DNA of 64,000 nt, from assembly GCA_020137815.1 (NCBI GenBank), contig CM035361.1, positions 3,224,001 to 3,288,000 of the forward strand, read 5' to 3'. Under the pieces are notes generated by a model. The model was not told where the DNA came from and did not search any database. It worked only from the letters and a program-made list of their open reading frames with translations. Numbering within the stretch: position 1 is the first letter of the stretch; every line of letters starts with the position of its first letter. The DNA comes from Hormiphora californensis (lineage: Eukaryota > Animalia > Ctenophora). Both the position numbers and the translations under genes were made by a program. Positions 19,101 to 28,100 of the stretch are shown here, in pieces.

Positions 19101-22100
19101 GCACTGAGCTGCCCCCTTTGAAGAGGTATGCGTTCCCTGTCCACACATTTTACATTCCGTCTTTCCCTCAGCGTCCTGGGAGAGAGAGAGAGAGAGAGAG
19201 AAAGAGAGAGATAGAGAGAGATAGAGAGAGAGCTTTACTTCCCCTATTTTATTTTAATTTTTCCTTACCTTAACCTATATGTACATTGTTCAACCTACCC
19301 ATATGTACATTGTTCTACCTACCTTTACTCCGCAGGCCCTCCGGGCCCTCAGATCCAACAGGATCCGGGCTCGGGGGATTTAACCCTGTTTCCACATGGG
19401 ACCTTACGGCCCCATGTGGGAGTGGTGCGTGTAGTGGACCGAGAGAGAGAGAGAGAAAGAGAGAGAGAGAGAGAGAGAGAGAGAGAGAGGGGGGGAGTTG
19501 GTCCACCTGCCACCACCTCCAATCGGTTTCCCCCGGGCAACGGGGTCACACGGAGTACCTTTTTCCCCATCCCCTTTTCCCCCTGTTCGATTTCCAGGTC
19601 CGTGTGGCCGCGGCTGAGCGTGGCTGTGTATCAGAAATACGGAAAAAAAATCAGAAAATACAAAATACAAAAACATCTTGGCGAGGCGGTCCCACAGTGT
19701 ATTAATCGCCAACTACTACTGTTCCTACCCCGCCTTCTCCGGCTCAGGGTTACCAGTGGAACAGGCATCTTCCAGCCAACTGTGGACCCCCAACGCCCCT
19801 TTATCCGCTAACCAATACTGTTTTTGTTCTACTAGCCCCCCTAACCCACTTCTTCCATTTTTGATAGGGTTCTACATCGGAGATGATTATTTGGAACGGG
19901 GTGGCTGTCCTCTCTGGAGCGGGGTCAGCTGTCTTTACTGGAACGGGGTCAGCTGTCCTTACTGGAGCGGGGTCAGCCGTCCTCTCTGGAACGGGGTGGC
20001 TGTCCTCTCTGGAACGGGGTCAGCTGTCTTTACTGGAGCGGGGTCAGCTGTCCTTACTGGAGCGGGGTCAGCTGTCTTCTCTGGAACGGGGTGGCTGTCT
20101 TCTCTGGAGCGGGGTCAGCTGTCCTTACTGGAGCGGGGCCGGCTGTCTTTACTGGAACGGGGTCAGCTGTCCTTACTGGAACGGGGTCAGCTGTCCTCTC
20201 TGGAACGGGGTGGCTGTCCTCTCTGGGGCGGGGCCGGCTGTCTTTACTGGAACGGGGTCAGCTGTCCTTACTGGAACGGGGTCAGCTGTCTTCTCTGGAA
20301 CGGGGTGGCTGTCTTCTCTGGAACGGGGTCAGCTGGCTTCTCTGGAACGGGGTCAGCTGACTTTTCTGGAACGGGGTCAGCTGGCTTCTCTGGAACGGGG
20401 TCAGCTGGCTTCTCTGGAACGGGGTCGGCTGTCTTCTCTGGAGCGGGGTCAGCTGGCTTCTCTGGAACGGGCTGGCTGTCCTCTCTGGCTCGACATGTAA
20501 TCATCATCCATTTGTGTTATTTTATTTTTTTTTCGCTCGAACCCGTTCCTGCTTGTTTTAGGCTGCCTTAGATTCAGACGGTTTGCTTCTTCAGTTCCTG
20601 ATAAGTTGTCTCCTCTTAGAATTCATTGTAGCAGATTGGGCTTCTTTGCAGATAGTTTAGGAGGTCTTGTGCTCCGTCACCATGAGCCCCATGTGGGAGT
20701 GGTGCGTGTAGTGGACCGAGAGAGAGAGAGAGAGAGAGAGAGAGTGAGAGAGAGAGAGAGAGAGAGAGAGAGAGAGAGAGACAGAGAAAGAGAGAGAGAG
20801 AGAGAGAAAGAGAGAGAAAGAGAGGGAAAGAGAGAGAACTTCATTATTCCATTGGGTCTCGTGATATAGCATGGTCTCGTGTTAGCTAGCACGGTCCCCT
20901 ATTATAAGTAAAACATGTCCTACACGAAGCTAGAGGGCTAAAGATCTCGAATTAAAAATTGACTACCACTCGTAGGAAATTAACACCGTTCCTCTGTCTG
21001 TATCTCTCTATCTTTCTCTGATCTCTCAGACGCACCACACACAAAAAGGGTGTGTCTCGATCCACTAACATCGAACAAAACCATTAGATCTTTGTCCTCT
21101 CTCTCTCTCTCACTCTCTCTCTCCTTTCTCTCTCTCTCTCTCTCTCTCTATCTCTCTCCAGCACACTTCCACCGCCTTCTCTTGATCTTTCGACTAGAAA
21201 GCAGCAAACGCGTTCCCTCTCTCTTACTTCGACACGTCACACACCACCAAGACTAACCGCCAACAAAACCATTAGATCTAAACTTAGTCTTTGTGTCTCT
21301 CACCCACCCTATTTCTCTGCGGTCTCTCTCTCTCTCTCTCTCTCTCTCTCTCTCTCTCTCTCTCTCTCTCTCTCTCTCTCTCTCACTCACTTTCTCGCAG
21401 ATAGTGAAACACACCAATAGTTCCACCCTGTCCGGATGGTGTTCGTTGCTTCTAGTTCTGAATTTACTTTGAACAAAATGACAAACTATATATTTTCTCG
21501 TGAGCACCCTCACACCACTTTCCAGCTTCCTCCTTTACTGAACCACTGTTTTTATGTTTGTGCCATTATATCAAACTGATTTACTTCATCCTAGGAAGTT
21601 GTTCAAATGTTGCGTACAATTTTGCTGTTAACAGTTTTGGGGGTGACCCTTAGTACGGTTCAGGCAGGTAAGATATTGAGACTGAGAACACTGTACTATC
21701 ACCTTAAATTACCGGGTGAAAAACTATTCCACCTAGTATAGACCATTGTAAACGTCCTGATAGGGCATATTGCGAGATAGGGCATATTGCGAGATTGTGG
21801 GATAAAATTGACACTGTTACACGGCACAGCTCCGTTTTGCACCAACTCAATAGCTAAGGCGTACTGTTAATGATTTTCATCCCATTACTATATAACATGT
21901 TTCAGACACCTCGTGGCTGCCTGTTGTACGCAGCACCCTGATTCCATGGGATTTAGAGAGTGTTCCTCTCCAAGTCCAAACTGACTCCACTACCAGCAAT
22001 AACAACTACCTAGTTGTCTTTTTCTATGAAGACACCCAAGAAACTTATACTGGAAGCAGTAACAACTACGAACCATTGATATCACTCAACCTTCTGTCAA

Positions 22101-25100: not shown

Positions 25101-28100
25101 TGCACTGACATAGCTCCCCTGCCTATCCAACCATCAGCTGAAGAACCCAAGATCTGGACTTTCTCAAAAATAGAAGATTATTTAACGATAGAATGCAACG
25201 GTGTCACCTTGGTAACGTACACGTTTACGGGAGCTAAATGTGAAGCATTATGGAAAGGAGACATAGTGGACAAAATAGCATTCTGGCATAATGATCAAGC
25301 CTCTAAATTCTACAGAGGTGTGTGAAAATGAACTAATTAATTTACCTGTCAATAATTTTTTCATCATATTGACAATAACAACTTTAACGCCTTTCTTTTT
25401 CAGCTTTAAAACCAGAATACTGTCCTGGATTCTCGATCCCTGGATCGACTGTGGAGAACTGGGATCCTCAACCACTCGGAACTACAGTGACGGTCCAGTG
25501 TAAAGAGAATCATGTGTTGCTAGGGAACGAAGTGACAACTTGTCTGGAGACTGGAGAGTGGAGTGAAGCAACTCTTCCAATGTGTAAAAAGTGCAGTAAG
25601 TAGCAATGTGGGCGGAGCACACGGAAAGAGGGTCACAGTGGTCAATGGTCATCCGACATATTCCGACGTGAAATTCGACCTGAATCTCGACCTGGAATGC
25701 GCCACGCATCAGAGAGATGAGCCGTAGTAAGCAAATGATGTCGCGCTTCAACTCTTCTCTCTCGTTAGTCTTAGTGTCTCTCTCACTACGAATGCGCACC
25801 TCATTCCAGGTCGAGATTCAGGTCGAATTTCACGTCGAGGTATGGCAATTATGTCGGATGACCACTGTCAAGCAAAGCAAGCTATCTAGTCCGTCTTGGC
25901 GGGTAGGCCTCCTTAGAGGACTACAATTTGTTATCCATTATGAATTTTCATTAAATTCCTTTCTTTGCCCATAAAGTCCTTTAAGTCTCAAAAATAATAA
26001 TTTTTGTTTGCTTAATTATAAACTTTCATTGAATTACTTTCTTTGTCCCCCAAACCCTTTGAAAAGCGCTGCCTTATCCCAATAGGGCCAGCAGCGTTTG
26101 CCAATCAAACCCTTAATTAAGTTTCGAAAATAATAAAATTTGTTTCGACGCTTACTTTGCGTTTTGTCATGATAGTTTGCTTCATATTAACATAGATACT
26201 ATCTAGTGCTGGCAAGCAGTAAGCACTCATTTAGTTACCAACATAATAATATAATACAGTGCAGTTTATATATAAACTCTAAATGTTAGGGGGAGCCGGG
26301 AGAGATAGCAAATACCAGATATAGTACAAATTCAGTCCAGCCGTTTCTTTCTAACCGCCCATTACCTCCGAGCTCAAATACAGTTGAACTCGGTGAGACC
26401 TAGAACCCCTCACTCTCTATAACACACCTAACCAGCAAAGTTCCCTCCAAATATAAAATTATCTGGAAGTTTGGTTTGGTTTGGTTTGGTTTGGTTTGGT
26501 TTGGTTTGGTTTGGTTTGGTTTGGTTTGGTTTGGTTTGGTTTGGTTTGGTTTGGTTTGGTTTGGTTTGGTTTGGTTTGGTTTGGTTTGGTTTGGTTTGGT
26601 TTGGTTTGGTTTGGTTTGGTTTGGTTTGGTGCTCCTTTATCAAACACGTTATGAAGTTACCTGGAAGTATCCCTCTGAGCATTTCTGGCAGGTGTTGGCA
26701 GCTTCATTGGCACTGTACGTTCCAACACCACAAGCAGTACACGTGGTAGCGTTGTAGCTGTCTGGTAACACGTGAGGTAAGTAAGGAGAAACAATTACAT
26801 ATAATATATATATTATGCTGTAATGATAAAACTTAACACCGAAAAACTAAAGTCCTAAAACAAACCACATTAGGTGTAAGGAGCAGGGCAAATAGTACGA
26901 TGGATAACGAACTGGAAGCCACTCAATGACTTGTCGTGCGGTTAAACGTAGGCAAACTTACCATCGTGAGTTCCCGGTGAACAAGGTTTACACATGGTAG
27001 ATCCTGCCGATTTAGCGAAGTGGCCAGGCAGACACCCGTCACAGTGGCCCATTCCTGAGGACATTGTTTCTTGGTAAGTAGGGGAGTTTGGGTTCGGCAT
27101 CTCTAGTCATGTATTTTATGATAATTAATTAATTAATTATGATAATAAGTATGTTATGATGATTACAAAGAATATTAGGAGAGAAAAAGATATAAACTTT
27201 ATAAAGAAAATAAGATGGAGGAAAGTGTGAAATGTGAATTTTCTGTAAAAATTGCTATTTAAAACTAACCAGTATTTCCCTGAGCGAATCCAGGCTGACA
27301 CAGCTCACATTTATCGAGGCCGGGGGATGGAGCGATGGATCCTGCGGCACAGGGGGAACACTGTTCCTGTCCCTCCGATGCAGCAATCTGTCCAACCCTA
27401 CACTCTGCACACTCTGGTGAAAATCGAGGTTAGTCAAAACTATTAGTTACAAAACCGTTAACTCGCCCAATGACCGATAAGCCAGTGGTACCGTGAATCT
27501 CGTTCCATTAAATTCTAAACAACAGAAAATTGGTTCTATACAAATTAAAAACAACAGTAATTGTTTTAACGGTCTAAAAAGTTGGTTCTATGTATTTCTT
27601 ACCCGCCTGTCCGGTAGCAGAAGCAAATGATCCCACAGGGCAGGCCTTGCACTCGCTAGATCCAGTATTGGACTCAAAGTGGCCCTTATCACATGCTTTA
27701 CACGCTGTAGCACCCGCCTTGTCCTGGTATCGACCTGTGGAGAGAATGGAAGTTTGTTGATTTGATTTCTTCTAATACTAAAGTGAACATGTGGTATACC
27801 GGGTCGTTAGACAGTCCTGAGTCCATCAACAGCATAATATATTAGATAGAGCAAATTTAGTTCAATATGTACATACCTTGTGCGCATGGAGCACACTGGT
27901 TCTGTCCCTCGTTAGCTTGAGCACTCCCTGCTTCACAGACCTTACATTTCCTAGCTCCATCCTCGTCTTGGTAACTACCAGCGGCACAGTTCTTACAGTA
28001 CTTACTGCCATTCTGGAATCACAAAATAATATTAATATGATCCTATTTTCAGATAAAACTTAAAAGTACGGGGGAATTAGTGAAACTATCCAGAAAGTGA

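Follow-up and report, generated by a model that had tools for sequence, protein, structure and literature searches.

RESULTS

Two intact genes nested within an intron

The 64,000-nucleotide (nt) stretch of the Hormiphora californensis genome analyzed here (contig CM035361.1, positions 3,224,001 to 3,288,000; hereafter the window) contains a pair of intact plus-strand genes, g1 and g2, each consisting of three exons that encode a signal peptide, a domain of 144 amino acids (aa), and a sushi domain. On balance, we consider it probable that they belong to a large family of likely secreted ctenophore proteins and that gene conversion has homogenized the framework common to the two genes while two old versions of one predicted binding face persist. 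All introns of both genes are GT-AG and of phase 1, and the reading frames are open (Table 1). The acceptor of intron 2 in g1 is weak and without a pyrimidine tract, yet the exon that follows is in frame. Each protein ends either at a stop codon three codons past the sushi cysteine (22604-22606 in g1, if its GTAAGT donor is unused, and 25601-25603 in g2, if its donor is unused) or in a short extra terminal exon, which the far 3′ flank may hold. The signal-like exons were judged by hydrophobicity, and no membrane segment was found in the three exons of g1 or g2; both products are likely secreted. No third copy of the domain occurs in the window.

The DNA shared by the two genes begins at 21868 in g1 and 24853 in g2, leaving both signal-peptide exons outside the block, in agreement with an earlier note on this DNA, which had described those exons as unrelated. 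The N terminus of P0005, a Pleurobrachia bachei protein model, matches that encoded by g2 exon 1 at 14 of 25 aa. A decayed signal exon of the g2 type was suspected within intron 1 of g1, but the match was not significant (P about 0.09). A presumed-RNA run had coverage in 2 of 30 bins, neither of them exonic, and is uninformative about expression either way.

Table 1. Positions of g1, g2, and associated features in the window
Feature	Coordinates	Strand	Remarks
Host intron, long Cys-rich (Ephrin_rec_like repeat) gene	19176..26660	-	Houses g1 and g2, which lie antisense to it
g1 exon 1, signal-peptide-like	21607..21667	+	ATG; hydrophobic 12-mer, Kyte-Doolittle (KD) value 2.45; phase-1 GTAAGA donor
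g1 exon 2, predicted galectin-fold domain	21906..22340	+	Patches of P0005 type; fold inferred via g2 model
g1 exon 3, sushi	22410..22598	+	PF00084, E = 3e-9
g1 near 3′ flank	22599..22790	+	Non-coding; 8/173 differences from g2 flank
g1 far 3′ flank	23384..23495	+	Common to 26140-26264; 18/111 differences
g2 exon 1, signal-peptide-like	24737..24812	+	Like N termini of P. bachei P0158 and P0005
g2 exon 2, predicted galectin-fold domain	24883..25317	+	P0158/P0001 type, 79-80% identity; model pLDDT 94, galectins top
g2 exon 3, sushi	25404..25595	+	PF00084, E = 2.5e-8
Insertion, 234 nt, in g2 3′ flank	25635..25868	.	Inverted-repeat ends; absent from g1

Judged from the sequence, both genes are nested antisense, whole, within one intron of the host gene. 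This intron is 7,485 nt long, the flanking repeat exons continue in phase 0 on both sides, and no host repeat motif was found inside 19176-26660. In the antisense frame, the tail of P0005 is an 81% match to the host exon at 26657-26764, and this suggests that the P. bachei locus has the same nested arrangement, though the P0005 model looks partly duplicated. Nested genes are reported as common in a pleurobrachiid genome (PMC8527503). The host gene itself occupies about 13000-33250 of the minus strand. Its start, near 33250, is signal-like; many short exons then encode Cys-rich Ephrin_rec_like half-repeats, about 50 in all, and the gene ends in what looks by eye like a kringle-like stretch (near 13150-13330).

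The exon-2 domain is predicted to adopt a galectin fold

No Pfam family matched the exon-2 domain of g1 or g2 at an E value of ≤1; exon 3 was recognized as sushi. The model of the g2 domain reached a predicted local distance difference test score (pLDDT) of 94 and a predicted template modeling score (pTM) of 0.89 when 84 sequences were supplied (pLDDT of 67 with 6 sequences). Galectins ranked first by Foldseek, by a second alignment pass, and by a wide search of 48,161 chains alike; the top 16 matches in the wide search were all galectins (Z scores of 9.1 to 10.7), and the best structural match was galectin-10 (Z of 11.2, root mean square deviation [rmsd] of 2.8, 124 residues aligned, residues 3-145 on 2-137). 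A single-sequence search of the PDB produced no matches at E ≤ 10, and the sole PDB sequence matched by the family profile was a galectin, at an E value of 0.19.

The predicted fold is common to galectins (galectin-4, -8, -9, and -10, GRIFIN, and sponge and fungal members) over the whole domain, with Z scores of 9 to 11 and an rmsd of about 3, but the ctenophore domain differs from them in its low identity (4 to 15%), its signal peptide, its conserved cysteines, and its sushi partner. Classical galectins are not known to have a signal peptide. The galectin Pfam family was absent among the 57 and 84 proteins scanned, and of the two signature motifs, H-x-N-x-R occurred in 0 of 140 domains and W-x-x-E-x-R in 1 of 140. 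Having the predicted β-sandwich, the domain is at most a galectin-fold binder and not a galectin as that family is defined. The FAMeT-like family PF12248 appeared as an Atlas look-alike (score of 0.92, with 143 of the 256 features; 56% of the cluster carries this family), but its recognition score was below threshold, and no PF12248 match occurred among 84 members at E ≤ 0.1.

Strands were assigned to an S sheet and an F sheet, and positions to their inward or outward sides, from DSSP strings, family hydrophobicity, and the strand order that we take galectins to have, rather than from coordinates. By this assignment, the variable residues described below fall mainly on the counterpart of the sugar-binding sheet of galectins; this predicted binding-side face varies in the ctenophore domain, whereas the galectin face is conserved. 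The galectin sugar site is reported to lie on the concave face, on strands S4-S6, with a signature of His-Asn-Arg, Asn, Trp, Glu, and Arg (PMC8699261).

Divergence between g1 and g2 is a mosaic

The near-invariant framework described in the earlier note was recovered: in the domain exon, 2 of the opening 86 nt and 5 of the final 69 nt differ, and the sushi exons differ at 7 of 187. Including the near 3′ flank, overall divergence in these parts is 2 to 7%. Codons 28-122, in contrast, differ at 19 of 61 silent sites (31%, omitting 4 codons at an indel), which exceeds the divergence of both the near 3′ flank (8/173; P = 3e-7) and the introns and far flank taken together (37/206; P = 0.03); intron 2 by itself differs at 15 of 69 sites. 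Restricting the comparison to codons that specify the same amino acid in both genes, 12 of 46 silent sites differ in the middle of the domain versus 4 of 63 in its ends and the sushi exon combined (P = 0.006). Recent conversion acting on an old duplicate is expected to leave non-coding DNA less diverged than silent sites in coding DNA, as seen here, and the near 3′ flank is likely a conversion tract.

The mosaic also divides the two sheets. Silent differences occur at 9 of 28 sites in S strands but at 1 of 22 in F strands (P = 0.03), and F3-F5, although within the middle of the domain, are homogenized (1 of 12.8 silent sites). At the end of S2, a tract with 0 silent differences nevertheless has changes at codons 134 and 136. 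Such a mosaic suggests that gene conversion has acted as a patchwork, leaving islands of old divergence between its tracts: tracts are more alike at both silent and non-coding sites, and the trees are discordant, with weak support in the case of the sushi tree. The earlier note had offered patchwork conversion on a ligand-binding surface as one of two possible readings, but the evidence supports it as the source of the near-identical parts, the patches being the old, unconverted remainder.

Both domain types recur in P. bachei, and the family is large

The close relatives of the pair are the P. bachei models P0001, P0164, P0158, P0005, and P0021. The g2 domain is 80% and 79% identical to those of P0158 and P0001, respectively. 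At the 44 columns at which g1 and g2 differ, P0005 matches g1 17 times and g2 4 times, and P0158 matches g2 27 times and g1 5 times. The domain tree (28 rows out of 140 domains) places g1 with P0005 and P0021 (support 99/99), and an approximately unbiased (AU) test on 12 domains rejected a clade of g1 plus g2 (P = 0.0007). The g1 domain groups with P0005 and not with g2; the patches are old, not recent bursts. States shared by g1 and g2 that are absent from all four close P. bachei proteins occur at 4 domain columns, 2 of which are variable or gappy, and at 3 sushi positions.

An exon-swap history based on the P0005 signal peptide was dropped, since P0158 pairs the signal of g2 with the domain type of g2, and a match of P0005 to Glyco_hydro_49 (27.6 against a cutoff of 27, over 50 residues) was taken as chance. 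A dispersed repeat in the window (15013-15126 and 30923-31048) is translated in the tails of P0005 and P0021, indicating that those models include repeat sequence.

A profile built from 6 sequences retrieved 617 clusters at 50% identity (E ≤ 1e-3), bearing out the idea of a multi-copy family; the best 150 of the 617 clusters were listed. Of 30 proteins looked up, 16 were named, and all 16 are from ctenophores (P. bachei, Mnemiopsis leidyi, and Bolinopsis microptera), the other 14 being unnamed records; the family is likely restricted to ctenophores, judging by these names. Partners of the domain include sushi (17 of 57 proteins scanned) and TSP1 (2 of 57), in addition to tandem copies of the domain itself. 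A metagenome scan yielded 87 pattern matches, 0 of which were confirmed. No description of the domain appeared in literature searches that, apart from the papers cited, covered listings, and the supplementary Foldseek tables S2 and S4 of a mesoglea preprint may list members.

Two members, P0159 and P0162, are the P. bachei "putative secretory peptide-53" and "-6" (UniRef M4H1R9 and M4H257), which consist largely of this domain. They share with g1 and g2 the domain (profile E values of 3e-44 and 3e-36) and a signal-like N terminus but are only 28 to 29% identical to g2, have no sushi listed, and bear names that imply peptide precursors. The match suggests that these putative peptides are instead folded, galectin-like domains.

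Variation is concentrated on one predicted face

All five patches named in the earlier note are present in the translations, and the amino acid differences between g1 and g2 (41 of 143 codons in the domain) are clustered (runs test, P = 0.002). They fall on 17 of 42 positions in the S sheet versus 3 of 33 in the F sheet (P = 0.003), so the expectation that they would gather on one binding face is upheld in the predicted structure. The same face varies among 132 distant domains: outward S positions have an entropy of 3.34 bits (n = 24) versus 2.04 for outward F positions (n = 19; P = 4e-6), and inward positions differ little between the sheets (P = 0.07). The outward excess persists when S1 and S2, which lie outside the contiguous block, are taken alone (n = 6; P = 5e-4). 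Moreover, the positions at which g1 and g2 differ are those that vary across the family (entropy of 2.76, n = 40, versus 2.05, n = 95; P = 1e-4). Taken on the model, these comparisons support a concentration of variation on one predicted ligand-binding face.

Further copies and polymorphism in DNA runs

In run X1, two contigs span 25005-25147 at depths of 168.5 and 168.1 and merge into one of depth 349.7. One is identical to g2, and the other carries 13 substitutions (of 143 nt) and a 3-nt insertion. Single-nucleotide polymorphism (SNP) heterozygosity in a pleurobrachiid is reported as 2% (PMC8527503), and the divergence within this bubble, if between alleles, is far above that value (P = 7e-6). 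The bubble is a hint of deep allelic variation, although the second contig may be a paralogue. At the first patch, 0 of 4 X1 contigs carry the letters of the window and most of the X5 depth does. The DNA runs show several further close copies; summed contig depth was several-fold higher over exons than flanks and was not used as a measure of copy number. Forty variant rows were read singly (25 replacement, 15 silent), but they mix paralogues with alleles and were not used as a test of selection.

Positions 22111 and 22113 are both A in runs X1 and X5, where no contig has the letters of the window; A at 22113 changes the second I of ISIWLGM to N, and Asn is the residue in P0005. Independent contigs cover the g1-specific 21986-22234 (2 differences) and the g2-specific 24462-24899 (1 difference). 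In run X7, from another organism, the bin at 21567-21733, which holds the g1 signal exon, has a depth of 180, versus 15 and 1.5 beside it, which hints that this exon is conserved or multi-copy.

Other features of the window

On the plus strand, 131-1546 covers the last part of a gene; it includes two Ig-like exons as well as a sushi exon whose identity to the sushi of g1 and g2 is about 42%. The minus strand holds DEAD-box helicase exons and a DIM1 exon (1880-3800 and 4040-4565). Large satellite arrays of a 10/12-nt AAAGCGCTTT-type unit occupy 35100-36750 and 39470-40330 in both orientations, with inverted arms of 440-610 nt nearby, and minisatellites of 24, 41, and about 187 nt occur at 19880-20500, 28200-28700, and 50700-52500.

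DISCUSSION

Probable conversion of the scaffold, with persistent faces

The explanation that we favor is that conversion homogenizes the framework of g1 and g2 while two old versions of the face are kept. With its concave (S) sheet, each paralogue would bind an extracellular target of its own, which is most likely a glycan. Conversion tracts overwriting that sheet would be purged by selection, those over the back (F) sheet, the sushi domain, and the 3′ flank would be tolerated, and an occasional transfer of a patch between copies would generate new alleles. As for the inferred role, recognition of foreign surfaces, whether of microbes or of prey, seems to us slightly more likely than attachment to the matrix of the animal itself.

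Several results weigh against this explanation. In the domain, the 80 nt differences divide into 20.1 silent and 59.9 replacement changes on 94.7 and 334.3 sites, a split near that expected from the site counts alone; silent divergence (dS) is 0.249 and replacement divergence (dN) is 0.205, for a dN/dS ratio of 0.82 in the pairwise comparison of g1 with g2. At outward S positions, the corresponding ratio of proportions (pN/pS) is 1.0-1.1 (P = 0.16 against the mid-domain silent rate), and the constraint on buried S positions (pN/pS of 0.36-0.40) is not significant (P = 0.07). Strands S3-S6 follow one another in the sequence, and a block left unconverted by neutral processes would likewise hit that sheet; the sheets themselves were assigned indirectly. 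The sushi tree weakly joins g1 with g2 (92/36), P0005 has a long branch (0.69-0.77) and a seemingly partly duplicated model, and the intron-2 acceptor of g1 is weak. With respect to the ligand, the galectin signature is lacking, and GH16-like and other jelly-roll proteins reach Z scores of 8 to 9 in the wide search, so that the fold does not fix what is bound.

These ratios also bear on the earlier note's proposal of diversifying selection, which they fail to sustain, and on its statement that the patches differ almost wholly by amino acid changes, which overlooks the 20 of 80 differences that are silent. Of the joint outcome that the note had named as telling against its reading, a dN/dS of ≤1 was found and a scatter of variable sites over the structure was not. 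The data do not show positive selection; they fit old islands of divergence that have been kept in the face of conversion.

Alternative explanations

It is possible, though doubtful, that the proteins are structural or adhesive, binding the polysaccharides of the animal's mesoglea or making up part of the glue of colloblasts, with paralogues tuned to different self ligands. The evolutionary mechanism would be that of the explanation we favor, and only the role would differ. Sulfated polygalactose or polymannans are reported from the mesoglea (10.64898/2026.02.02.702917), an over-representation of sushi and lectin terms is reported among colloblast candidates (PMC6278862), and the sushi and TSP1 partners accord with such a role; hundreds of clusters with one hypervariable face would, however, seem to exceed the need of a few self ligands.

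We regard as unlikely a neutral mosaic, in which conversion has by chance affected the ends of an old pair and the middle drifts under relaxed constraint, the face having no paralogue-specific function. Conversion initiates most readily where identity is already high, and this, together with ratios of about 0.8-1.1 and the contiguity of S3-S6, is in keeping with such a process. Against it stand the recurrence of both domain types in P. bachei, the excess of mid-domain silent divergence over that of the introns plus far flank, the homogenization of F3-F5 inside the middle, the changes at codons 134 and 136 in a silently identical tract, and the variability of the same face in distant domains.

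Ongoing diversifying or balancing selection at the face, with many deep alleles per locus as in hypervariable immune or allorecognition loci, is also improbable. It would account for the equal-depth bubble in X1, if read as alleles, and for the contrast between X1 and X5 at the first patch, but the pairwise dN/dS does not exceed 1, a paralogue may be the source of the second contig, the contigs are unphased and some were filtered, and the variant rows are 40 of 137. Decay of g1, or an artefact of assembly behind the pair, is very improbable: the weak acceptor of g1 and two letters unsupported by two runs are countered by open frames, canonical splice sites, independent contigs over sequence specific to each gene, and P. 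bachei counterparts of both types.

Relation to known systems

A conversion mosaic is in itself a pattern of known kind; of more interest is the family itself, a large set of domains that has no Pfam name and combines a predicted galectin fold with a face that varies. With g1 and g2 as two natural variants on a nearly identical scaffold, a confidently predicted fold, and a defined face, specificity is directly testable. The family may act in recognition within one of the earliest lineages of animals. More speculatively, and only as a tentative proposal, ctenophores may possess an uncatalogued, secreted galectin-fold recognition repertoire, hundreds strong, whose sugar-binding face is hypervariable and is reshuffled by conversion among paralogues and alleles while the scaffold stays constant. 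It would be a variable-receptor system peculiar to this lineage, among the earliest-branching animals, with some members filed as peptide precursors.

The sea urchin SpTransformer, snail FREP, amphioxus VCBP, and Hydractinia Alr systems are multi-copy and extracellular, exchange sequence between copies, and have a variable surface. The g1/g2 family resembles them in being multi-copy, apparently extracellular (by its signal-like exon), and variable on one surface (by strand-order mapping), and in the probable exchange of sequence between copies, but its fold is different, and the pairwise dN/dS of 0.82 does not exceed 1. Surveys of ctenophore immunity are reported to count Pfam-named domains, such as TIR2, NACHT, and SRCR as well as C-type lectin (PMC11797021), and a domain lacking a Pfam model would escape them. 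The closest precedents for the mosaic are the concerted evolution of mammalian TLR1/TLR6 (PMC2077338) and the islands of divergence in copepod GOT1p1/p2 (PMC3728101), which are described as tandem paralogues that are closer to each other than to their orthologues in converted tracts while divergent regions persist, as they do here. Unlike in those pairs, the tracts in g1 and g2 alternate within one 435-nt exon, where they appear to track the two sheets of a single domain.

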